64,000 nt of DNA from a virus, in IMG/VR virus record IMGVR_UViG_3300042975_000098. One strand, written 5' to 3'. The translations under genes were made by a program, and so were the position numbers. Below, piece after piece: positions 2,506-64,000 of this stretch; positions within the stretch are counted from its first letter, which is position 1; every line of letters begins with the position of its first letter. A model generated the notes under the pieces. That model was not told where the DNA came from, did no database searches, and worked only from the letters and a program-made list of their open reading frames with translations.

Positions 2506-2576
2506 CGGGCGCCGCACGTTAGATTCCCGTAGGCGTTCATGATATTCGTGAGGGCAGAGGCGAGAGGAGCAGTGAT

Positions 2577-3251
2577 TTGAACATCGAGAAACGGCTTGAC
2601 GATGGGTCGACCATCATGTCGGTCGCCATACCAGAGTTCCTTGCTTGCGTGGATTATGCCATCATAGACAAGACGAAGCGCTGGTCGTACTCGGACATGC
2701 TGGTCGACGCGGAGAAACTCGCCGGGCCGCAGACGCTCAAGGGGTACAAGAGCCTGATCGATCAGAAGCTGTTCGGCATCGACGCCGACGGCTACCCCGT
2801 CATCGAGGTCGCGGCCCGTCAGCTGGTGTGGCTCACGTCATCCATTCGCAATCATGATGTCATCGTCAACATCAAGGTGGCGGTGGACCACCGGCGCATG
2901 ACGTTCGTGTTCCTCCACGACAAGAGCTCCTGGGTGCTGTACTGGAAGTCGAAGACGGTGTACAGGTTCATCTCCGGTCTCATGGTGGAAAGCCCCGGCA
3001 TGGCGCTTCACCGCAGCATCATCCATGTGCTCGACAAGGCCAAAGTCGACAAGGTGTCCGTCGCGTTCATCGTGAAGAACGACATGGGCCGCGATCTTTC
3101 ATCGACGGTCATCGCAAGCAACGAGTACGGCGAGTACGTGGAGCAGGAACCCGACCCTATGTTCGTGTTCGATGCGCGCGCCCCGTGGCCCGTGCATTAT
3201 TCCCGGTACTCGATACTCGATAGGTTCGATGACATTCTCAAGGGGGTGTAG
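2577..3251 (+). CDS. Hypothetical protein
   Basis: 224-aa ORF with TTG start after an AGGAG SD, typical codon bias, abutting the next gene. Confidence 0.7.
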   Translation: MNIEKRLDDGSTIMSVAIPEFLACVDYAIIDKTKRWSYSDMLVDAEKLAGPQTLKGYKSLIDQKLFGIDADGYPVIEVAARQLVWLTSSIRNHDVIVNIKVAVDHRRMTFVFLHDKSSWVLYWKSKTVYRFISGLMVESPGMALHRSIIHVLDKAKVDKVSVAFIVKNDMGRDLSSTVIASNEYGEYVEQEPDPMFVFDARAPWPVHYSRYSILDRFDDILKGV

Positions 3252-19045: not shown

Positions 19046-20953
19046 ATGATGGCCATTACGAAACCGGATTACGAGCGTCTTGAGGACGTCTTCCCGTCGT
19101 TCGACGCGGGCGACGGGCAACGGGGTCTCGATGACATACCCCCGGAGTTCGCGAGTCTTGTCCGGATCATGAGCAGGTCGTTGGATCACGTGAACCGGGT
19201 ACACTCGATCATGGTGAGCGGTTCGCCGCTCACGGGGAAGACGTTTCTGATCCGCTCGTTCGCCGCCGCGCTCGCCGACCTACCGTCCACGTTCGCCACC
19301 CGTCGCGTCCGGACGATCTCGCCGGACGCCAAGGACCAGGACGTCATGGCCATGGCGCGCATCCTCGGCGGGCATGACGCGAAGGACATCGTGTACACCA
19401 CCGATTACCGTGATGCGGTCATGGTCATGGAGGCGAACCGCTCGGTGTCCGTCATTCTCGAGATACAATCCGACCAAGCGCTCGGCTCACCCGCCATGAA
19501 CGATCGCGGCATCATGTCGAGCTTCGATGTCGTGGACCTCGACGGGCTGGATATGACCTGGGGTTCGTTCGTCCATGAACTACAGACCGTGAACCGCACG
19601 CAGTACGAGCCCAAGTACCACATGAGGGTGGACGATCGCGACGTCGCCCGGTTCGCAAGGGCGGCGTGGCGCGCGGGCGTGCTGGATGCCTCGGATGAGG
19701 ATTGGAAGCGCAAGATCCCGCGACGGGGCGACTCCATATCGTTCCCGATCGGCATCGCCGTCGACCTCCTCGAGACGGTGGAGCTCCGCATGACCGAGAC
19801 CGGCCCGGGCGCATCCATGCGCCGTCTGGTCACGGATGCCGCCGATGACACGCTGGCGCTCGGCAGCGACTACTCGGACGTGAACCACATCATGGGACTG
19901 GATCGACTGCTCGCCGAGGGCGGAGAGTTCGAGGCCGATGACGAGGGCGTCGACGATTCCGATGCGGATTCGGAGCCGGTCATCCACCCGTACTCGGACA
20001 TAACCACGCTCCCGGATCGCCTCCATGACCACATCGTGGGGCAGGACGGCATCGTTGACCGGATCAGCGACGCGCTCGCCATCGACGCCGCCGGACTGCG
20101 GACGAAGCCCGGCCCCATCGCCTCGTTCGTCTTCCAGGGACCTTCCGGCGTCGGCAAGACGGAACTCGCACGCGTGCTGGCGGAGGAGGTATTCGCCGCG
20201 CCGGTACAGTTGATCCGGCTGGACATGTCCGAGTATGCGGATGAATCCTCGCTGAGCAAACTCATCGGCTCGGCGCCCGGTCTCGTCCAATCCGAGGACG
20301 GCGGCAGGCTGACGAACGCCATCAAGCAGCACCCGCAGTGCGTGCTGCTGCTCGATGAGGCGGAGAAGGCGCATCACACCGTGTGGAACACGTTCCTGCA
20401 GGTGCTTGACAGCGGAGTGCTGACGGACGCCCGCGGCATGACCGTCGATTTCAGCCATGTCATCGTGATACTGACGACCAACCTCGGCAATAACGAAGCC
20501 CTGCGCCCCAAGGCGGGGTTCGGCTCGCAGGGCGGGGACCATGAGTCGATGACCTCGTTCTTCAAGGAGGCGCTTCGCCGTTACTTCCTCCCCGAGTTCA
20601 TAGGCAGGCTCGACTCGGTGTTCGTGTTCGGCAGGCTCGACCACGAGGAGCTTCGGCGCATCGTCCGCATGCAGCTGGACAGGCTGCGCGGCGCTATCCA
20701 TGATGGCCATCGTTCGCTGACGATAACCATTGATGACGATGACGCCATGATCGACTGGCTTCTCGATCAGGCCGATTCGGACAGGTTCGGCGCGCGCGGC
20801 GTCCAGAACGTGATTCGCAGGCGCGTGGCGCTCCCCGTGTCGCGTTGGATCATATCCCATGAGAGCGACGCGGACGCGCGGGCGGTGACGGTCGCCTACG
20901 AATCCGGCAGTAACGATATTGTCATGACCGACAATGGAATCAAGGGGGCATGA
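19046..20953 (+). CDS. ClpA/ClpB-family AAA+ ATPase (intact D2, degenerate D1)
   Basis: IVGQD, GPSGVGKT, IRLDMSEY, LLDEAEKAH, PEFIGRLD and FGARGV, with a remnant N-terminal Walker A GSPLTGKT. Confidence 0.88.
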   Translation: MMAITKPDYERLEDVFPSFDAGDGQRGLDDIPPEFASLVRIMSRSLDHVNRVHSIMVSGSPLTGKTFLIRSFAAALADLPSTFATRRVRTISPDAKDQDVMAMARILGGHDAKDIVYTTDYRDAVMVMEANRSVSVILEIQSDQALGSPAMNDRGIMSSFDVVDLDGLDMTWGSFVHELQTVNRTQYEPKYHMRVDDRDVARFARAAWRAGVLDASDEDWKRKIPRRGDSISFPIGIAVDLLETVELRMTETGPGASMRRLVTDAADDTLALGSDYSDVNHIMGLDRLLAEGGEFEADDEGVDDSDADSEPVIHPYSDITTLPDRLHDHIVGQDGIVDRISDALAIDAAGLRTKPGPIASFVFQGPSGVGKTELARVLAEEVFAAPVQLIRLDMSEYADESSLSKLIGSAPGLVQSEDGGRLTNAIKQHPQCVLLLDEAEKAHHTVWNTFLQVLDSGVLTDARGMTVDFSHVIVILTTNLGNNEALRPKAGFGSQGGDHESMTSFFKEALRRYFLPEFIGRLDSVFVFGRLDHEELRRIVRMQLDRLRGAIHDGHRSLTITIDDDDAMIDWLLDQADSDRFGARGVQNVIRRRVALPVSRWIISHESDADARAVTVAYESGSNDIVMTDNGIKGA

Positions 20954-26539: not shown

Positions 26540-26641
26540 GCCGGGCATCACGCATCGGTGCCGGAAACAGTTAGATGAACGTCGATATTACCATGTCGTT
26601 GTCTTAACGGCGACGGGTGGATTCTAACGGAAGGCAGAGAA

Positions 26642-26962
26642 ATGTTCACATTCGATGTGCTCAATAACGGGCTTACTCTGATCATGGCCAGTGGTCTGAG
26701 CGGATTGGCGACCTCGCTGATCAAGAACTGGATCGGACCGGTGTTCCTGGTCATCGTCGCGGTCACCGCGTTCGGCTTCATCAGAAGCCAGGCGTGGACG
26801 AAGCTGATCGCGTTCGTCGGCATCGCCGCGCTCGTCGGCGCGCTGATCTTCTTCGGCAGCGACCTGTTCGGTCAGGACGGCGTGATCTCCGGAATGTTCA
26901 CGAACGCCGGCAAGGCCGTGGGCGGCGCCAACAACAACACCGGCGCGTTCAGCGGTCAATGA
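26642..26962 (+). CDS. Small 2-TM protein, VirB2/TrbC pilin-like
   Basis: 106 aa with two hydrophobic helices and a basic linker (FIRSQAWTKL), directly after the tcpC-like gene. Confidence 0.6.
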   Translation: MFTFDVLNNGLTLIMASGLSGLATSLIKNWIGPVFLVIVAVTAFGFIRSQAWTKLIAFVGIAALVGALIFFGSDLFGQDGVISGMFTNAGKAVGGANNNTGAFSGQ

Positions 26963-27375
26963 TGCCGAAGCAATCGGAGAACAAGGACCTCGATTACATC
27001 GCGAAGCTGGCGGCCGGCATGAACGGGCACACCAGAACCGTGACCGAGGCCGAACAGGAGCTGGCGGCCCGTCAGCTTGAAGCGGTGACGTCAAACACCG
27101 ACGAGAACGATGATGACGTCGCCGCCGCCGAGGATGCTGAACCGACGTACACGAACGCCGTCGACGATCCGATGGCGGTGTTCGGCATCGGCGAGCAGCT
27201 TCTCGGCATCGATGATGACGCATCCATCAGTCTCCTCGATCTCATGAAGCGCATCGCCAAGGTCTACAAGGCCGAGGGCGATGGCGGGTCGGTACGCATC
27301 ATGGCCACGGGCGACGGGTCCGTGAAGAACGTGGATTACGACGTCGCCAGCCACACGCTGACGTTCATCGTCTAA
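26959..27375 (+). CDS. Hypothetical acidic protein
   Basis: ATG 26959 is coupled to the stop of the pilin-like gene. Confidence 0.7.
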   Translation: MMPKQSENKDLDYIAKLAAGMNGHTRTVTEAEQELAARQLEAVTSNTDENDDDVAAAEDAEPTYTNAVDDPMAVFGIGEQLLGIDDDASISLLDLMKRIAKVYKAEGDGGSVRIMATGDGSVKNVDYDVASHTLTFIV

Positions 27376-27385
27376 GGAGGCGGGC

Positions 27386-27520
27386 ATGTTCGATCGCAGA
27401 TACGTGGTCCGAGAGCAGCACGGGCATTCCGCTCTGCTATGGCTCATGTGCGGCTGGTGCGTGCTGTACATCCCGGTTCTCTACTACATCGTATCGCCCC
27501 ACCACTACTTTCACTTGTAG
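27386..27520 (+). CDS. Small membrane protein, 44 aa (not in the ORF track)
   Basis: TAAGGAGG SD then MFDRRYVVREQHGHSALLWLMCGWCVLYIPVLYYIVSPHHYFHL*, followed by a hairpin. Confidence 0.75.
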   Translation: MFDRRYVVREQHGHSALLWLMCGWCVLYIPVLYYIVSPHHYFHL

Positions 27521-27535
27521 CATCCGCCGGGCGGC

Positions 27536-27580
27536 ATGACTTCGAGGCGCATGGGTTCGCTCATGCGCCTCGACCGTCAT
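27536..27580 (+). terminator. Stem-loop, probable terminator
   Basis: TCGAGGCGCATG...CATGCGCCTCGA, a perfect 12-bp inverted repeat after the small ORF. Confidence 0.6.
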
Positions 27581-27619
27581 CGGCGGCGTTAGATGACGAA
27601 TGACAACGAGGGAGAGCGT

Positions 27620-28717
27620 ATGGCACGGTATGGGTTGATGAGAACAGGCGAGCACGCCGGCGAGTACACGTTGTGCCACGCACGGGACATGGCCTCGTGC
27701 CCGTATCATTCCGAGCACGTCGACATGACCGCGGCCGAGGCGATGACCGTCAACGAACCCGTCATCGAACGCCGGCAGCAGCACGCCATGCCGCGAGCCA
27801 TGATGACGCCGCGCCGTTTCGAGCGCGCTCGTCGCATGGCCGGCGCGGTGCTGGCCATCACCGCGCTCACGACTACGCTCGCGGCCTGCGGGAATACGTC
27901 GGAGTCGCCGGCGAACGTTGACGATGGCACGCCCGGAACCGCGGAATCTTACGCGCGGTTGAAATCGGCCGCCAAGGGTGGCGTCGACAGGATGCGGAGC
28001 AGCCGTGCCGCCTCCCGTCTGCGTGACAAGCTGACGTCATCGGATACGAAGGCGCAGGTGGAATCAATGCTGGGGTCGTTGAAATCGGGGTCGCGCGATG
28101 CCGGCGAGTCCGATCAGTCGCAATCATCAACGTCTTCCGGGGGCGCGTCGGCGTTCGGCAGCGTGTCGGCGGCGCAGGGTCTTGCCGATCTCAACGCGCT
28201 TCGCGTCGCGGGTCCGTCAGCAGTCGGTTATGACCGGTCGGAGTGGAGACAATGGGACGTCTACGGTTCGAGATCGTGCTGGTCGGTTCGTGAGCAGACG
28301 ATAGCGACGCAGGCCACCGGCGTCAGGCTCGCCGATGATGGGTGCTCCATCGAGGCGGCATCGCTGACAAGCCCGTACACGGGTTCGTCCGAGTCGTTCG
28401 GGACGAGCAGGGATGTGTCCTCGCGTATCCAGATCGATCATGTGGTGCCTTTGAAGTACGCCGCGGAGCATGGGGCGCAGTCATGGTCCGCGGCCGATAA
28501 GGAACGGTACGCGAACGACACCACGCCAGGTCATCTCATCGCCGTCGATAGCCATTCCAATGAGGCGAAGGGCGATTCCGGTCCTTCCGAGTGGATGCCA
28601 TCGGCGAACCAGTGCGCCTACGTGGAGGATTTCGTCGGCGTGCTTCGCAAATGGAGCATATCCATAAGCCCCGCCGACGCGACGTTCGCTCAGCGGCAGC
28701 TTGCCTCTTGTCGTTGA
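27620..28717 (+). CDS. HNH (DUF1524-like) nuclease lipoprotein with N-terminal C-C-H-H motif
   Basis: GYDRSEW, QIDHVVPL, YAND, LIAVDSHSNEAKGDSGPSEWMP and internal lipobox LAAC. Start follows a GGGAG SD. Confidence 0.85.
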   Translation: MARYGLMRTGEHAGEYTLCHARDMASCPYHSEHVDMTAAEAMTVNEPVIERRQQHAMPRAMMTPRRFERARRMAGAVLAITALTTTLAACGNTSESPANVDDGTPGTAESYARLKSAAKGGVDRMRSSRAASRLRDKLTSSDTKAQVESMLGSLKSGSRDAGESDQSQSSTSSGGASAFGSVSAAQGLADLNALRVAGPSAVGYDRSEWRQWDVYGSRSCWSVREQTIATQATGVRLADDGCSIEAASLTSPYTGSSESFGTSRDVSSRIQIDHVVPLKYAAEHGAQSWSAADKERYANDTTPGHLIAVDSHSNEAKGDSGPSEWMPSANQCAYVEDFVGVLRKWSISISPADATFAQRQLASCR

Positions 28718-28773
28718 AATACCGCCGTTGGCGATATTCCGTCGCAGGATGAAATTGACGGAATGGAGCTGGA

Positions 28774-29427
28774 TTGCTGAGGGCATATAGGAACCTTGAC
28801 ATGCGGCCCAGCGGCATCGATGGGTTGGGCCGTCTGACGTCCGTCGACGTCGCGGCGATGACCGGCTGGCTGGCCGCGCATGGGGTTCCTGCCTCGGAGA
28901 CCAACCTCGACCTCGCCGCAGCAAGATCGAACCGATCGGCGTGCTATGGCATCATCGTGGTCGTCCGCAACGGGGAGCTTCCGACGCCGGATGTTGAACG
29001 CTCCAACGATTCCATCGCGGGGTTCCTCATCGGCCACTCCGCGTCCCCGGCCGATCGCAACGCGCTGGCGGTGTTCCGCCCGGTCAGTTCATCCGCCAGG
29101 CTCTTCGATTCCATGACCATGATCATCACGGGGAACAAGACGCTATCCATCGTCGACGCCATCGCCAACCTCTCACGGTACAATGACTCCTCCATGACCG
29201 CGTTCCTGCTGCGCAAGCTGCAGAGTTCATGGTATGGTCACCGGCCCGTGGTCATCGCCCATGACGGCTACCGCATCGACGGCGGCGTGGGAAAACAGAT
29301 GGTCAAGTTCGGGTTCCACGTGTACGGGGCCGGGACCTTCGACGCGCTGGCGGCCCCCGTGAAACGGCAGGGCCCCTGCGCGGCGCTCATGGCGTTCAGG
29401 GTACATGATTCCAGGGAGGGCGTATGA
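28774..29427 (+). CDS. Hypothetical protein
   Basis: 217-aa ORF coupled to the next gene; start uncertain. Confidence 0.6.
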   Translation: MLRAYRNLDMRPSGIDGLGRLTSVDVAAMTGWLAAHGVPASETNLDLAAARSNRSACYGIIVVVRNGELPTPDVERSNDSIAGFLIGHSASPADRNALAVFRPVSSSARLFDSMTMIITGNKTLSIVDAIANLSRYNDSSMTAFLLRKLQSSWYGHRPVVIAHDGYRIDGGVGKQMVKFGFHVYGAGTFDALAAPVKRQGPCAALMAFRVHDSREGV

Positions 29428-29975
29428 TACAGTCACTGCTCGATCGCGTGCGATCGATAATAGCCGACGACAAGGGGCTGGTGGGCTCGATCATCGCCAT
29501 CGTCGTGCTGGCGGCCGTGAGCGTCGCCGTCGACATGCTCGCGCCCGAGACCACGTGGTTCCATTACCTGCGCGCCGTACTCGCTCTAGCGCTGTCGGCC
29601 CCGTTGTTCGTCGGCGGGTACTTCCTTGCCGATAAGCAGCATCAAGCCAACGTTCGCAAGGCCGATGAGGACGGCGACGTGTACATCCCCTTCAAGTCCC
29701 GTTACCTCCCATCGCAGCGGCAGAACCAGTCGATCGTGGTGGTGGGCGTGATGCTCGCCATAATCATCGTGAGCAGTTTCACCGCGTTGTACACCGTGGG
29801 CGCCGCCGTCGTGCTGGCGACGTCGTATGCGATGGTGGCCTATTGCTCGCTGAGCGACGAGGAGCGTGAGCTCAAGGACATCGGCGTCGATGACCGCTCG
29901 GCGGGCGAGTTCGTGAAATCGATGGATGACGATGAGGATGCCGAGGATGGCGAATCGTCGCCCGACCATCGTTAG
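29424..29975 (+). CDS. Hypothetical membrane protein (4 TM)
   Basis: Four hydrophobic helices and an acidic tail. Confidence 0.7.
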   Translation: MIQSLLDRVRSIIADDKGLVGSIIAIVVLAAVSVAVDMLAPETTWFHYLRAVLALALSAPLFVGGYFLADKQHQANVRKADEDGDVYIPFKSRYLPSQRQNQSIVVVGVMLAIIIVSSFTALYTVGAAVVLATSYAMVAYCSLSDEERELKDIGVDDRSAGEFVKSMDDDEDAEDGESSPDHR

Positions 29976-30010
29976 ATGATTCGGTGAAGAGCGATCGATT
30001 GGAGCACGTA

Positions 30011-30913
30011 ATGTCAGCGATGAAACAACAATATGGCGTGAATGCGGATGGTTCGGTGAGCCGTTGCCGTGCCAAGCCGGGGAACATGGGAAGGTTCGGC
30101 TGTACTCATGGGTCGCATTGCCTGTTGAGCGCCGCCGAGGCGGCCCGGATCAACGAGGTGTCCGCCGGCAAGCGCGCGGACACCTCGCCGTTGAACAAGA
30201 AGCGCGTTGGGGTTCTCGATGCCAGGATCAGCGGAGTGGACGCTGATTCGCTGTACTCGGGAGCAGTCAAACGGCTGGACGTCCCGCGCGACCAGACCGT
30301 GGTGCCGCCCGAGCGTCTGACCGCTCCGGACACGGTGCGCGGCGACGAGGAGAAGGAGATCGACTGGGTGATGAGCAAGTCGGCCGATCTCATCGGACAG
30401 CCGCTCGCCGATTCCGAACGCGACACGCTCGTCGGCTCGTTGCGCAGGTACGCCATCGAGTCGAAGTCGAGGTCGGTGTCGCCGGCGGAGGAACACGAGT
30501 TGAGAACGGTTCTCATGGAGCCGGGTGATGCTTCCAACGAGTCGGTGGGCAAACTCATGGGGCATGAGCCATCGAGGAAACGATACGCGGACTACCTGGT
30601 CGACAGCGGCAAGGTCGATGATGCGGGCGTGAAGACCCTGTGGTCGGAATCGCCTGACCGTTGCCTTGACGCGCATCGCGTTCCTGCCCGGTATGTGAAT
30701 GAGACCATAGGCGCGGACCCCGCGTCCACGCCGGCGGCGCGCCTATCCAAGGCGTTGAGCCATTACGGAGCCGAGCCGGGCAAGGTCAGCGCTGCGCTGG
30801 CGGTCGTTCGCAAGCGCACCGCCGACAGGGAGCTTCCGCCGTCATATCTCGCGGAATGCGAGTGGGCTGTGTCGCTGAACCCCGATGACAAGGTGCGCGA
30901 CGCCATCAAGTGA
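30011..30913 (+). CDS. Hypothetical protein with N-terminal C-C-H-H motif
   Basis: YGVNADGSVSRCRAKPGNMGRFGCTHGSH; GGAG SD before ATG 30011. Confidence 0.7.
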   Translation: MSAMKQQYGVNADGSVSRCRAKPGNMGRFGCTHGSHCLLSAAEAARINEVSAGKRADTSPLNKKRVGVLDARISGVDADSLYSGAVKRLDVPRDQTVVPPERLTAPDTVRGDEEKEIDWVMSKSADLIGQPLADSERDTLVGSLRRYAIESKSRSVSPAEEHELRTVLMEPGDASNESVGKLMGHEPSRKRYADYLVDSGKVDDAGVKTLWSESPDRCLDAHRVPARYVNETIGADPASTPAARLSKALSHYGAEPGKVSAALAVVRKRTADRELPPSYLAECEWAVSLNPDDKVRDAIK

Positions 30914-30983
30914 ACGACGTCAACGCCAGTTGGTGCCCCGGTCGACCGTAGATCGACCGGGGCACCACGGTATAATGGGCGGC

Positions 30984-32367
30984 ATGGGCAGAAACTCAGT
31001 GACTTGGAAATGCTCGTCCTGCGGGTACTCATCGGTGATGAAGTTCATGGTGTGTCCGTCGTGCGGCTCGGCGCACACGGCGACCGCGGAGGGAGGGGCC
31101 GCCGATGGCCCCGATGCGGGCATGCGAATACGGACGAAGCCAGACGCCGGGTACGTGAGCACGACCACGGCGGCCACGGTCAAATCAATAGCGCGCACCC
31201 GATCGCCTCGCGTGCCGAGCGGTCTCACCGAGTTCGATCGACTGCTGGATGGCGGCTTCGTGGATGGGCAGGTGGTGCTGATCGGCGCGGCGCCGGGGTT
31301 CGGCAAGTCGACGCTCGCCATCGAGATACTTGAATCGCTGGCCGAGCGCGGCGAATCATGCCTGTACGCGTCCGGTGAGGAATCGCAGGAGCAGTTGGCC
31401 GAACGCGCCGTCCGCGTCGGCTCCGTGAACGGCAATGTGAGGATACTGTCCACATCGGTGGTCGAGGATGTCCTCCACCACGCCGATGCCCTGGACGCCG
31501 GGTACGTGGTGGTCGACTCGCTCCAGACGATGGCGTCGGCGGCGGTCGACGGCCTGATCGGCGGCGTGGCGCAGTCGAAGGAGTCGGCGATGGCGTTCAC
31601 CCGGTACGCGAAGGCGAATCACGTCGTGTTCATCCTGGTGTCGCAGTTCACGAAGAACGACGAGGTGGCGGGGAGCAATCAGATCGCCCATATCGTGGAC
31701 ACCGTGCTGATCGGCGATTCCGATGAAGAGACCCGCCTGAAGTTCCTCCGGTCGGAGAAGAACCGGTATGGCCGTACCGGCGAGACCGCCATCTTCGTCC
31801 ACGAGTCCGATGGCATCAAATCCGTGGACGACCCGTCCGAGTACCTGATGGGCGACATGTCCGACCCGGTTCCCGGCGCCGCGCGAACATGCGTGAGCGA
31901 TGGCTCGCGCATGCTTCCGATCGAGTTCGACGCGCTCGTCGTCGACGCCGCATACGGTTCCCCGCAGCGCCAGTTCAACGGGTTCAACCCCTCACGTGGC
32001 AAGATACTCGTGGCCGCGCTCACGAAGTACGTCCGCGAGTTGAAGCTCGGCGAGCGCGACGTGTTCGTGAACGCTCTCGCCGGCGTGCGCGCGGTCGACC
32101 CGAACGCCGACCTCGGCGTGGCGGCGGCGGTGGCGTCATCGGCTTTGGATCAGGCTCCGCGCTCGCGCACCATGTGGGTCGGCGAGGTGACGCTCACAGG
32201 GCATGGTGGTGGGCCGTGGTCTCATCGAGAGCAAGGCGCGCGAGGCGATGCGATTGGGGTTCGAGCGCATCGTGATCCCCAAGTCGGCGATGTCGCCGGC
32301 GCTGGGCTCCCTCGGCATCGAGGTGCGCCCCATCTCCCGGCTGTCCGACATCACGACCGTGCTGTGA
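30984..32367 (+). CDS. radA: DNA repair protein RadA/Sms; +1 frameshift at 32199-32201
   Basis: CSSC...CPSC zinc finger, GAAPGFGKST, YASGEES, VVDSLQT, KNRYG and Lon-like C-terminus. After GEVTLTG the +1 frame continues MVVGRGLIESKAREAMRLGFERIVIP to TGA 32367. Confidence 0.92.
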
Positions 32368-32389
32368 GCGCGACCGGTATAATGCCGAT

Positions 32390-32839
32390 ATGGTTGACAG
32401 CAATGACGGGACCGTGTACAGCGGCATCAAGATCGAGCTTCCGAGCTTCCCGGAGAGCAGGGGCGACGGGTACGTCCCGGAGAGGATCGTCGACCCGCAC
32501 GGCGATTACCAGGACATCATCGCGGTGAACAAGGCCATCGACGGCGTGCGCATCCGGTTGTTCAAGGTGAATGCGCTGCTCAAGCACGTCGAGCGCAAGG
32601 CCATCGAGGCGCAGGCCGCCTACGACCGCATGTTCAACAGGGCGTTTCTCGACGCCGAGGGGCGGACGGCGGAGATGAAGCGCTGTATCGCCCAGATTCA
32701 GACGGAACCCGAGCAGAACAAGGTCCTCGTCGCGCAGCAGATGGCGAAGGAGCTTTCACGGCAGTCACGGCAGATGTCCATGGAACTGGAGGCGCTGAAA
32801 ACCGTGTCCTATAACATCAGGAAGGTGAGTGACCTATGA
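32390..32839 (+). CDS. Hypothetical helical protein, possibly a UvsY-like recombination mediator
   Basis: 149 aa with coiled-coil character and a leaderless start after GGTATAAT. The resemblance is weak and by eye. Confidence 0.6.
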   Translation: MVDSNDGTVYSGIKIELPSFPESRGDGYVPERIVDPHGDYQDIIAVNKAIDGVRIRLFKVNALLKHVERKAIEAQAAYDRMFNRAFLDAEGRTAEMKRCIAQIQTEPEQNKVLVAQQMAKELSRQSRQMSMELEALKTVSYNIRKVSDL

Positions 32840-47445: not shown

Positions 47446-48855
47446 ATGGCTTCGAATCTGACCGACGAGCAGCGCGCGGAATGGTCGGCGGCCGTCGCCG
47501 GCGCGGAGCTCAGCGCCTCGGAACTCAGCGTCGGCCTGGCGTCGATGGTGCCGTTCGCGTCGACCGTTGTTCGCGTGTCGGCCATCGATGAGTACTGGCG
47601 CGTGGCGCTCGGCCCCGGTTTCTGGCGATACCCGGAGCGCGAGCGGGAGGCGATCGTCATCCACGAATGCCTTCACGTGGTGTGCAACCATCACGCCCGC
47701 GCCAGGATAGCGCACCAGTCGGATGCCAAGACATCCAACATGGCGCAGGACCTTGAGATCAACCAGCTTATCACCACGCTGCCAAGGGTCCATCTTCCCG
47801 ATGATGCGCTCATGCCCGGTGAAACGCTGCGCGTCCCCCGGAACCGCACCATGGAGGAGTACTACGGCATTCTGTCCGACGGCGATGGCGATGGGGACGG
47901 CGGTGATGGCGCGGAGTCCAGCGAAGCATCGTCCGGCGCCGGCCCGAAACCGCCAGCGGACGCCGGCGGCGAGTCCGATGACGATTCGCGGTCGGATGCC
48001 GACGGGTCGCAAACGGGCGGCGGCGATGGCGGCCAGCGGGATCGCGGGCAGGGCACCCATGGAGGTCCTGGACCATGTGACGGCGACCGCGGCATGGAGG
48101 TCGAGAACGAGGCCGACGCGATCGGCATAGGGAAGCTTGATGGAACGAACCAGTCGTTCGCCCGCCAGCAGGTGGCCGAGGACACCCGCAAGTCGATGGC
48201 GCATGGCACGGGGTCCATGGATGGCTCCTTCGCCGCGCGGCTGCTTGACGGCATGAAGCCGCCGAGGGTCAACTGGCGCGAGGTGCTCACCCACGCGTAC
48301 TCAAGAGAATACTCGAAGGCCGCGAGGCGCTGTATCGACTATTCCTACAAGCGGGTGAACCGTCGCGGCACGGCGTTCGCCTCCGATCTCGTGTTCCCCG
48401 GACTCGTCGGCAGATCGCCCCGGACCATGGTCGCCGTGGACACCTCCGGCTCCATGGGCGAGAGGGATTACGACGCGATGCTCCGCGAGGTGTCCGCGCT
48501 GCTCAAGGAGGTGTCGCATTCCGAGAAGAACTCGATCGTGTTCTTCTGCGTGGACACGAAGATGAAGGACCCGGACCTGGTGACGGATATCGCCGACATC
48601 GATCTCAAGGGAGGAGGCGGCACCGACATGGCACCGGCGTTCGCCTACGTCAGCGGGCTGTCGCGCTCGAAACGCCCGGACGTGTTCGTGCTGGTGACGG
48701 ATGGCGGGTTCGACTGGAGCCGGTTGGAGAGGTCATGGCCGGCGGGCGTGAAGGTCATCATCGCGTTGACCTCCGACATGTCGCTGGGGTCGATCCCGGC
48801 GTTCGTGAGCGAGAACGCCACCGTGGTCGTCATCGGTGATTCCGCGCGCCGCTGA
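47446..48855 (+). CDS. DUF2201-type putative metallopeptidase with vWA domain
   Basis: HECLH, NMAQDLEIN, VDTSGSM, GGGGTDM and VTDG. Confidence 0.88.
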   Translation: MASNLTDEQRAEWSAAVAGAELSASELSVGLASMVPFASTVVRVSAIDEYWRVALGPGFWRYPEREREAIVIHECLHVVCNHHARARIAHQSDAKTSNMAQDLEINQLITTLPRVHLPDDALMPGETLRVPRNRTMEEYYGILSDGDGDGDGGDGAESSEASSGAGPKPPADAGGESDDDSRSDADGSQTGGGDGGQRDRGQGTHGGPGPCDGDRGMEVENEADAIGIGKLDGTNQSFARQQVAEDTRKSMAHGTGSMDGSFAARLLDGMKPPRVNWREVLTHAYSREYSKAARRCIDYSYKRVNRRGTAFASDLVFPGLVGRSPRTMVAVDTSGSMGERDYDAMLREVSALLKEVSHSEKNSIVFFCVDTKMKDPDLVTDIADIDLKGGGGTDMAPAFAYVSGLSRSKRPDVFVLVTDGGFDWSRLERSWPAGVKVIIALTSDMSLGSIPAFVSENATVVVIGDSARR

Positions 48856-63874: not shown

Positions 63875-64000
63875 GTGATCGCACAAGTTGTTAGATGGTG
63901 TTCCAGTGGGCATCCAGCCGGAGTTGGTCGCATGTCGTTGGGTAACTGGTAATCGACGTGATATTGGACGGTCGGACATGCTCACGTATGTTCATGTTTG

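Follow-up and report, generated by a model that had tools for sequence, protein, structure and literature searches.

In polymorphic toxins a constant N-terminal domain is joined to a C-terminal toxin that varies, and the gene directly downstream confers immunity; LXG and MuF are N-terminal trafficking domains of such toxins and effectors. Capsid-targeting sequences (those of the T4 internal proteins and the N-terminus of P1 DarB) are short unfolded peptides of capsid-forming phages that are cut at L/I-x-E, and Gram-positive surface proteins can have extended signal peptides of the KxYKxGKxW or accessory-Sec type. Xanthomonas type IV secretion system (T4SS) effectors carry a C-terminal domain, XVIPCD, as outlined in PMC8740702, and Iyer, Burroughs, Anand, de Souza and Aravind (2017, PMC5512222) describe the polyvalent proteins of conjugative elements and phages as early-acting, protease-processed effectors that join several effector domains on one polypeptide, often with a zincin peptidase among them, and are encoded together with T4SS or phage structural genes. 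In this article I consider IMG/VR record IMGVR_UViG_3300042975_000098, analyzed as a stretch of 64,000 nucleotides (nt) that I will call the window, in which a nuclease-type protein (P0001) and a helical-repeat protein (P0002) open with the same N-terminal zinc-type module. This module is an undescribed domain of ~65 residues, composed of a beta-hairpin (YG-x-N-x-DG), a Cys-Cys-His-His knuckle with two loop lengths, an acidic helix (T-x2-EA-x3-NE) and a flexible linker ending in L-x-K(K). It heads dozens of otherwise different proteins on giant plasmid-like elements, where it may, with a probability that I put at about 45%, serve as a folded leader or handle that sorts its cargo to the transfer machinery and is processed at L-x-K.

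A first-pass annotation of the window had proposed that two unrelated proteins share a C-C-H-H module at their N-termini, and this is confirmed, with the sequences reading as it quoted them (MARYGLMRTGEHAGEYTLCHARDMASCPYHSEHVDMTAAEAMTVNE in P0001 and MSAMKQQYGVNADGSVSRCRAKPGNMGRFGCTHGSHCLLSAAEAARINE in P0002). Its joint consensus needs one correction, in that the two proteins space their cysteines differently (C-x7-C-x2-H-x2-H in P0001, C-x11-C-x-H-x2-H in P0002), and its unit of ~45 amino acids (aa) is too short, since the helix, the linker and the L-x-K(K) motif ~25-30 residues past the second His belong to it as well. Compared directly, the pair is weakly similar (BLASTP aligns 17 residues at E 0.042, and nothing behind the N-termini), so that their homology rests on profiles. 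A search with the window proteins in a word-indexed protein collection returned near-identical copies only (P0003, P0004 and P0005), and a profile made from the two N-termini, searched against 1.84 billion representative proteins, matched 68 clusters at E<=1e-3 and 11 at <=1e-10, in proteins of 58-1346 aa and, for nearly all, within the first ~55 residues. It had been expected that such a profile would uncover, on related elements, a multitude of proteins with the module fused ahead of diverse domains, and this was borne out, by these 68 clusters and by 39 groups of cargo. One match, P0032 (1346 aa, repetitive, with no scored stretch), was dropped as probably false, and P0005, P0006 and P0007 are near-duplicates. 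When the resulting 62-sequence family profile is run on the window it finds two copies only (E 4e-22 and 2e-16), and the pattern C..C..HxxH..AAEA occurs in its six frames in exactly two places, P0001 and P0002. A chance similarity of the two N-termini is refuted.

The spacing C-x5-13-C-x1-2-H-x2-9-H is found in 66 of 67 proteins (P0048 carries an insertion), and G9, C19, H33 and H36 are invariant in the 62-sequence alignment. Position is equally strict: of 67 proteins, 61 have the YG of the module at residue 2-12, at least three of the other six (P0013, P0028 and P0071) show a Met immediately ahead of the module, which means that their starts may be mis-called, and no internal or C-terminal copy was seen among the family members and the copies in the 420-kb relative described below. 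The ATG at 27620 assigned to P0001 (MARYG), with GAGGGAG upstream, agrees with the YG position in the family. The members divide into a long-loop subtype, YGxNxDGSxSxC[RK]AKP[GE]NxG[RK]YGCxHxxH, as in P0002, and a short-loop subtype, YG[IL]xxxGxHxGExTxCxAKDPxxCPYHxxGSH, as in P0001. Among 1,234 open reading frames (ORFs), a profile of 45 long-loop sequences matches P0001 (E 5e-7) and one of 20 short-loop sequences matches P0002 (E 2e-9), none of the profile sequences being from the window; since each subtype recovers the other in this way, and since the cargo group of P0002 includes members of either subtype, the two are interchangeable. AlphaFold2, given the family alignment, models residues 1-75 of P0002 with a mean predicted local distance difference test (pLDDT) score of 81.5, as a beta-hairpin (6-10 and 16-18), a ligand-bearing loop, a third strand (35-39) and a helix (41-57), and the full-length model keeps this arrangement, continuing through residues 56-70 at pLDDT <50 into a confident all-helical repeat at ~100-300. 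The four invariant ligands and the confident small fold fit the metal-binding role predicted in the first-pass annotation.

The module is invisible to the domain collections searched. Pfam gives nothing over it in P0001, P0002 or 66 relatives, PHROGs one stray match in 62 and NCBIfam two stray matches in 62 (with full-length proteins, PHROGs matches are restricted to HNH cargo), and the module profile run against PDB sequences finds a His-tag artefact only. Searches with the module model had best scores of E 0.26 (Foldseek, PDB) and Z 3.1 (VIA-align wide), neither significant, and the 75-residue model found nothing in BFVD at E<=1e-3; a weak or absent structural match is no proof of a new fold. 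Among the top 50 weak BFVD matches, six different proteins (E 0.4-1.6, one of them named zeta toxin) come from the uncultured 'Siphoviridae sp. ctHip2', which may be a related giant element or hold an analogous expansion. Known zinc domains were considered and set aside. The classical C2H2 beta-beta-alpha finger has C-x2-4-C in its hairpin and H-x3-5-H within its helix; the module is spaced C-x7/x11-C-x1-2-H-x2-4-H and, in the model, both His precede the helix, so that it is not a finger of this class, Ros/MucR included. A zinc ribbon has two CxxC/CxxH knuckles on two hairpins, and the module has no CxxC pair, its ligands being a single Cys, a Cys-x-His and a His. The ZAS anti-sigma domain is helical, with the motif H-x3-C-x2-C, and often stands ahead of a membrane span; its motif is absent from the module, whose model is mainly beta with one helix, and the sole resemblance is the layout of zinc domain, membrane span and outside domain in the nuclease group. 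Full-text literature searches on polyvalent proteins, zinc-binding N-terminal translocation signals and giant plasmids, and passages of PMC5512222, likewise yielded no description of the domain.

Behind the module almost anything can follow. The 64 proteins with at least 40 residues of cargo fall into 39 BLAST groups, of which the largest are P0002-like proteins (8), HNH endonucleases (7) and DUF1524 nucleases (5), and the range across the family extends from lipoprotein nucleases and HNH nucleases to a superfamily 2 (SF2) helicase, a zeta-toxin kinase, a zincin peptidase and helical-repeat proteins. Pfam recognizes GmrSD_C in three cargo regions, HNH in seven and LRV repeats in two, and 51 of 66 module proteins have no Pfam family at all; P0034 and P0035 have an HExxH motif, and P0034 a weak match to LPD1 (E 0.006, below the cutoff). 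P0001 belongs to GmrSD_C (PF07510) at 30.8 bits against a cutoff of 23 (E 3e-7), and P0030, P0038 and P0050 are also above the cutoff for this family. P0002 has no match in Pfam; Foldseek with the full-length protein returned weak helical-repeat matches only (PUF/TOG/ARM), and residues 1-57 had no usable match in the ESM Atlas.

The nuclease group is instructive with regard to topology. Bacterial lipoprotein precursors have a basic n-region, a hydrophobic core and a lipobox L-[AS]-[GA]-C, and P0001 fits this definition (RRFERARRMAGAVLAITALTTTLAAC), so that it is predicted to be processed as one. A membrane segment is confined to the DUF1524 group, in which four full-length members and one fragment have a lipoprotein signal peptide (L-[AS]-A-C-G) after the module; the module-then-lipobox layout of P0001 recurs in P0030, P0038, P0050, P0026 and the gene 143460-144698 of the relative G001. 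These signals are atypical in lying 60-100 residues from the N-terminus, and since the module precedes the signal peptide, it would stay on the cytoplasmic side and form no part of the mature exported enzyme. Between module and cargo, a short motif stands ~25-30 residues past the second His, most commonly as S/A-L-S-K (exact LSK in 21 of 66 linkers). Counted from the second His, the looser [LM]x[KR] falls at +19 to +40 in 54 of 64 proteins, compared with a mean of 19/64 after shuffling and 24% of equal windows in the cargo; L.K in the same span gives 42/64 proteins versus 73/729, and K63 of P0002 is invariant in nine orthologues.

The window is a large mobile element with replication and transfer genes of its own: Pfam identifies DnaE, DnaB, GyrB, SSB and a RadA-like protein, as well as TrbL/VirB6, a lysozyme, a PBP1-type enzyme, a T2SSE ATPase, TadA/TadB-type genes and a MoxR and VWA-peptidase pair. 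Its G+C content is 62.9%, and almost every gene is on the + strand. Among 47 of its proteins Pfam recognized no family of capsid, portal or terminase, a search that divergent genes could escape. Sequencing runs that share words with the window are mainly metagenomes of bioreactor sludge (12 runs with at least half of the sampled words), and megablast of positions 27000-31000 found no match in 72,556 named plasmids. The family as a whole is restricted to giant conjugative plasmid-like elements of 170-490 kb that metagenomes alone have revealed. All 20 clusters that were looked up are metagenomic, unnamed or 'hypothetical', the largest contigs with module clusters measure 171, 350, 369 and 491 kb, and two different members, P0011 and P0049, both list a contig of 491,046 bases. 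With three module queries, tblastn yielded nothing credible in the same named plasmids and 50,697 named phages, and one pattern run on GTDB genomes, one per species, gave six pattern matches and no loci. IMG/VR scans with whole P0001, whole P0002 or the long-loop alignment found no relatives, and all IMG/VR scans together returned only one weak 9-kb record and, through the short-loop alignment, the element G001. A metagenome scan added one true locus, L001, on a 1.4-kb contig of another element, and a second, L002, a chromosomal methyltransferase region that was rejected as false.

G001 (419,707 bases, 49.5% G+C, 508 ORF-genes by simple greedy calling) is syntenic with window positions 4-46,000 at protein identities of 25-60%. 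In IMG/VR it is classed as a complete virus, direct terminal repeats included, and I read it as a conjugative giant plasmid-like element. It has 342 genes of 110 aa or more, and a Pfam scan of 324 of them (18 genes spanning retrieval boundaries were left out) found no capsid, terminase, portal or tail family, which divergent genes could again escape; it did find conjugation-type genes (AAA_10, TcpE, FtsK_SpoIIIE, four T2SSE ATPases, lysozyme/CHAP) together with RecA, DnaG, gyrase, a sigma-70-family protein, two trypsin-like proteases, two ClpP and two ClpC-like ATPases. The family profile identifies the zinc module in eight G001 genes at E<1e-3 and in two weaker ones, in all ten at the N-terminus, and the cargo includes a ResIII helicase (1035 aa), a zeta-toxin kinase, a NAD-ligase (with a weak module) and the syntenic counterparts of P0001 and P0002. 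In the counterpart of P0001 (143460-144698) the module, linker and lipobox are kept and the enzyme is Endonuclease_NS instead of DUF1524, the best G001 match to the DUF1524 domain being at another locus (260718-261620). This is a non-orthologous replacement of cargo at a syntenic locus, with the head kept and the enzyme exchanged, and the cargo is accordingly separable and exchangeable behind the module.

Furthermore, the linker motif is not the property of one head. Thirteen further G001 genes open with an unrelated module, (M)xDHGEPPxxGATWVExYERAGVxVxGYWRG, that is absent from the window and is followed by otherwise different cargo. In most of the 13 copies (12 by reading), L-x-K-K stands 15-30 residues further on, as PLSKK, PLNKK, TLKKK or VLRKK. 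Two unrelated heads with one motif and one architecture point to L-x-K-K, and whatever reads it, as the common denominator.

The two kinds of gene in G001 also share a DNA motif, which was first seen in the window. There, the 10-mer CGTTAGATGA stands upstream of both module genes, with no third copy on either strand, and neither gene has GGTATAAT or GATATT directly upstream; these observations of the first-pass annotation, and the further GTTAGAT sites that it listed at 2518, 26570 and 63890, all proved correct. GTTAGAT occurs five times on the + strand of the window, always in non-coding sequence or at a stop codon, and never on the - strand. With 5.2% of positions non-coding, it ranks first among all 7-mers for intergenic specificity, above GTATAAT (8/10) and GATATTC (8/11), the two promoter-like motifs already known. 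L001 has TGTTAGATGT 50 nt 5' of the point where its module gene starts. In G001, TTAGAT is found within ~100-110 nt upstream of 6/10 zinc-module genes versus 28/498 others (p 1e-5) and of 8/13 second-module genes; for both modules together the count is 14/23 versus 23/485 (p 4.6e-12), and when the comparison is limited to genes preceded by a gap of 60 nt or more it is 12/21 versus 16/257 (p 1.5e-8). Of the claim that a third regulatory motif governs the cargo genes, enrichment therefore stands, in the window, L001 and G001 alike, and exclusivity to family genes does not.

How the motif would be read can be suggested from its letters. Actinobacterial -10 elements of the sigma-70 type have the form TANNNT, in which the second base is A and the sixth T, and transcripts start 6-8 nt downstream; the G001 site, mostly GTTAGATT, holds TAGATT, a hexamer of this type, and four of the five window sites read TAGATG. 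(C)GTTAGAT(G/T) may thus represent a separate promoter class. A consensus promoter scan found nothing at the GTTAGAT sites, and alignment of the five window sites showed no common -35-like element. The commonest upstream word of G001 is another one, TGATATCTT, the counterpart of the GGTATAAT and GATATT motifs of the window. Contigs from sequencing runs at 96-97% identity have no listed change in 27587-27596, which is uninformative at that divergence, and contigs from RNA libraries lie over 27415-27692 and 28485-28714, which cannot show transcription or starts. A reading of the motif as a mark of leaderless starts was rejected: a GTG at 29984 lies 13 nt past the site, and no in-frame start is placed equivalently before P0001. 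As separate observations, GGTATAAT and (C)GATATT(C) stand exactly 14 nt 5' of many ATGs (for example 35056, 41458, 25077, 43497 and 45046), which suggests many leaderless transcripts in the window, and a similar stretch, CATGTCGTTGnnnTAACnGG, follows two GTTAGAT sites (26593-26613 and 63930-63950, near GATATT) and is possibly a common RNA or operator element. Coordinates are collected in Table 1.

Table 1. Features of the window, and examples of second-module genes in the relative G001.
Feature	Position	Strand	Basis or remark
P0001 gene, 365 aa; zinc module, linker, predicted lipoprotein signal peptide, GmrSD_C/DUF1524 nuclease	27620..28717	+	ORF and Pfam
Zinc module of P0001, short-loop subtype, residues 3-46; ligands C19, C27, H30, H33	27626..27757	+	family alignment/profile
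M57-P58-R59 of P0001, putative equivalent of the L-x-K motif	27788..27796	+	assigned by position
Signal-peptide-like segment MMTPRRFERARRMAGAVLAITALTTTLAAC, lipobox L-A-A-C, up to C90	27800..27889	+	sequence; weak LptM_cons match
GmrSD_C (DUF1524, HNH-type) nuclease domain, P0001 residues 265-346	28412..28657	+	Pfam
P0002 gene, 300 aa; zinc module, disordered linker, all-alpha repeat cargo	30011..30913	+	ORF and structure model
Zinc module of P0002, long-loop subtype, residues 7-49; ligands C19, C31, H33, H36	30029..30157	+	profile and model
L61-N62-K63-K64 of P0002, L-x-K(K) motif in low-confidence linker	30191..30202	+	alignment and model
P0002 cargo, residues ~100-300, HEAT/LRV-like helical solenoid	30308..30910	+	structure model
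Perfect 12-bp inverted repeat (TCGAGGCGCATG...CATGCGCCTCGA), terminator-like hairpin without T-run, 15 nt 5' of first 10-mer	27541..27572	+	read from sequence
10-mer CGTTAGATGA, copy 1; core GTTAGAT 27588-27594, 24-33 nt 5' of P0001 start	27587..27596	+	exact match
10-mer CGTTAGATGA, copy 2; core GTTAGAT 29971-29977, 32-41 nt 5' of P0002 start	29970..29979	+	exact match
GTTAGAT before non-family gene 2577-3251, 16 nt upstream of GATATT	2518..2524	+	word count
GTTAGAT (AGTTAGATGA) before small gene 26642-26962 with two transmembrane segments, 7 nt upstream of GATATT	26570..26576	+	word count
GTTAGAT after gene ending 63874, upstream of GATATT and ATG 63978	63890..63896	+	word count
217-aa gene between the two module genes	28774..29427	+	no family match; position kept in G001
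183-aa membrane protein gene	29424..29975	+	TAG stop inside 10-mer copy 2; position kept in G001
ClpB/ClpC-like ATPase gene	19046-20953		Pfam; window
Second-module gene (example)	63727-64110	-	G001
Second-module gene (example)	88746-89465	+	G001
Second-module gene (example)	96008-96412	-	G001

Several neighboring features deserve a brief comment. The hairpin at 27541..27572 was not picked up by a terminator scan that relies on T-runs. Of the three features of polymorphic toxins, a constant N-terminal domain and a variable C-terminal part are observed; the genes downstream, where an immunity gene would be expected, are the conserved 217-aa gene after P0001 and a RadA-like gene after P0002; a predicted complex of the 217-aa neighbor with the module scored 0.00 against a mark of 0.32, which carries no weight either way. 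The RadA/Sms-like gene itself (30885-32528) looks frameshifted near 32204, where its alignment to the intact 463-aa RadA orthologue of G001 ends (residue 408): the C-terminus resumes in another frame (ORF 32203-32367), and the tail of ORF 30885-32528 looks out-of-frame. G001 also has a complete-looking type I-E CRISPR-Cas set (Cas3, Cse1, Cas7, Cas5, Cas6e, Cas1 and Cas2 at 244537-253508), IF3, ribonucleotide reductases and glycolytic enzymes, and the gene of a protein of 949 aa that contains six DUF4379 'treble clef zinc finger' repeats (101930-104779) adjoins an FtsK/SpoIIIE-type gene. Its sigma-70-family gene (283201-284031) adjoins a module gene (284548-285279) and is a candidate reader of the promoter motif; similarly, a trypsin-like protease gene (321122-322228) adjoins two module genes (322321-323637 and 323976-324833), which makes its product a candidate processing enzyme. 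Trypsin-like proteases cut after basic residues. Another candidate for processing is the DUF2201 peptidase encoded in the window at 47446-48855.

What could such a module do? The strict N-terminal position, the exchangeable cargo, the flexible linker, the placement ahead of the signal peptide, the second head with the same L-x-K-K and the co-regulation all fit a leader or handle. As a mechanism, GTTAGAT would be the -10-like core of a promoter class that switches the set of module genes on together; the module would then be read at its free N-terminus by one shared putative partner, either the transfer or export machinery or a processing enzyme, and would be separated from its cargo at or near L-x-K(K). 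In the version that I prefer the cargo would be delivered together with the DNA, since the cargo list matches the 'first-wave' proteins that are sent with or ahead of DNA as PMC5512222 presents them. A more ambitious extension, which I consider doubtful though worth stating, is that giant conjugative plasmids may have a sorting system of their own, comprising the GTTAGAT promoter class (perhaps with a sigma factor of the element), at least 20 proteins each headed by a folded address domain, of which there would be two or more interchangeable kinds (zinc module, GATWVE..GYWR hairpin), plus L-x-K-K, cleavage after the Lys, and cargo that would act as first-wave effectors in the recipient.

A number of points weigh against the leader or handle. 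Zinc binding by the module is predicted from the four conserved ligands alone, and the family members were gathered with a profile seeded with the two window proteins, which keeps the cross-subtype test from being fully independent. The genes of P0001 and P0002 belong to the conserved syntenic core, with replication and transfer genes as neighbors, and are not obvious accessory 'weapons'. Three of the five GTTAGAT sites in the window and 23 of the 37 TTAGAT-preceded genes in G001 belong to non-family genes. To my knowledge, T4SS signals are C-terminal or internal and not N-terminal zinc domains, and the lipoprotein nucleases would presumably leave by the Sec route and need no extra tag. Cleavage at L-x-K is a guess.

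Each of the alternatives accounts for part of the same evidence. With four Cys/His ligands, basic residues in the knuckle (CRAKPGNEGRYGC) and so much cargo that works on nucleic acids (HNH in seven clusters, DUF1524 in five, and ResIII, Endonuclease_NS and the weak NAD-ligase in G001), the module might be a nucleic-acid-binding zinc finger that brings its cargo to DNA or RNA, or a small regulator domain; this is unlikely, given that the charge of the module is near neutral (+0.9 for the knuckle half, -2.1 for the next helix), that a signal peptide and a membrane part it from the enzyme in the nuclease group, that helical repeats, a kinase and a peptidase are cargo too, that it is never internal or C-terminal, and that a module without zinc ligands fills the same slot before L-x-K-K. 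N-terminal tags are a usual means of engaging Clp-type unfoldases, and the same strict position and flexible linker would also suit a stability or unfolding tag for the AAA+ machines of the element, setting the lifetime of co-expressed proteins or feeding them unfolded to another machine, and such machines are at hand (the ClpB/ClpC-like ATPase of the window, two such ATPases and two ClpP in G001). A stably folded zinc domain would however be an odd degron, I know of no precedent for this motif as one, and L-x-K(K) and a tag on lipoprotein precursors would be left unexplained, so that I give this idea a low probability as well.

That the elements are instead huge phages, with the module as a particle-loading tag cut by a head protease at L-x-K in the manner of the T4 and P1 sequences, would agree with the IMG/VR class of G001 and its direct terminal repeats, and with the six weak BFVD matches from ctHip2. 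The Pfam scan of G001, with the limit on divergent genes given above, speaks for conjugation (TcpE, AAA_10 and FtsK_SpoIIIE present, the phage families missing), IMG/VR yielded G001 and the weak 9-kb record only, and the named phage records contain no match; taken together, these make the phage alternative very unlikely. I would put at similarly long odds a permanent oligomerization or scaffold domain that pairs or anchors diverse enzymes and is not removed: a small domain with an amphipathic helix ahead of a linker, found on many enzymes, would suit such a role, which fails to explain the strict N-terminal position, the placement before the signal peptide and the L-x-K-K in common with the second module.

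Even on the most cautious reading, the module family merits a database entry, since Pfam, NCBIfam and PHROGs all fail to recognize it. The giant plasmid-like elements of uncultured bacteria are almost wholly unannotated, and a new family of at least 68 clusters, a companion module, a short motif and a putative promoter motif together mark a co-regulated set of at least 20 proteins per element. If the module does serve in addressing or processing, it would reveal the way in which these elements sort or deliver nucleases, helicases, kinases and peptidases. Its sequence would also be a signature by which their effectors could be found, and the module a compact tag that might direct proteins in conjugation. 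Should it act in transfer with the DNA, it would be the first N-terminal, folded and metal-dependent transfer signal for a conjugation system of the Gram-positive type.

Returning to the systems with which this article opened, the module resembles LXG, MuF and XVIPCD in being one conserved domain on many unrelated effectors, nucleases included, with a cargo swap behind a constant head (DUF1524 versus Endonuclease_NS at one locus); unlike them it is a zinc domain of 45-65 residues, whereas theirs are helical, and there is no similarity in sequence or fold. With the capsid-targeting sequences of T4 and P1 it has in common that unrelated cargo bears one N-terminal address and, after it, a short conserved motif as possible cut site, and it differs in being a folded domain of metal-binding type with L-x-K(K), on elements without detectable capsid genes. 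The nuclease group recalls the KxYKxGKxW signal peptides, where a conserved N-terminal extension also stands ahead of an ordinary signal peptide, but here signal peptides are limited to 5 of 39 cargo groups' worth of proteins and the extension is a zinc domain and not a basic peptide. Polyvalent proteins are similar in their setting, a mobile element with T4SS-type genes, and, going by PMC5512222, in the overlap of cargo (nucleases, SF2/ResIII helicase, a zincin HExxH peptidase as in P0034 and P0035 with the weak LPD1 match, and a kinase-type toxin) and in the idea of early action with protease processing. The module proteins, in contrast, mostly have one cargo (P0001 and P0002 one each) behind a common N-terminal zinc domain, passages of that paper gave no description of such a Cys-Cys-His-His domain, and no Pfam LPD model covers the module. 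The domain itself matches none of these systems, while its logic appears to be that of the known shared trafficking heads and of the polyvalent proteins.

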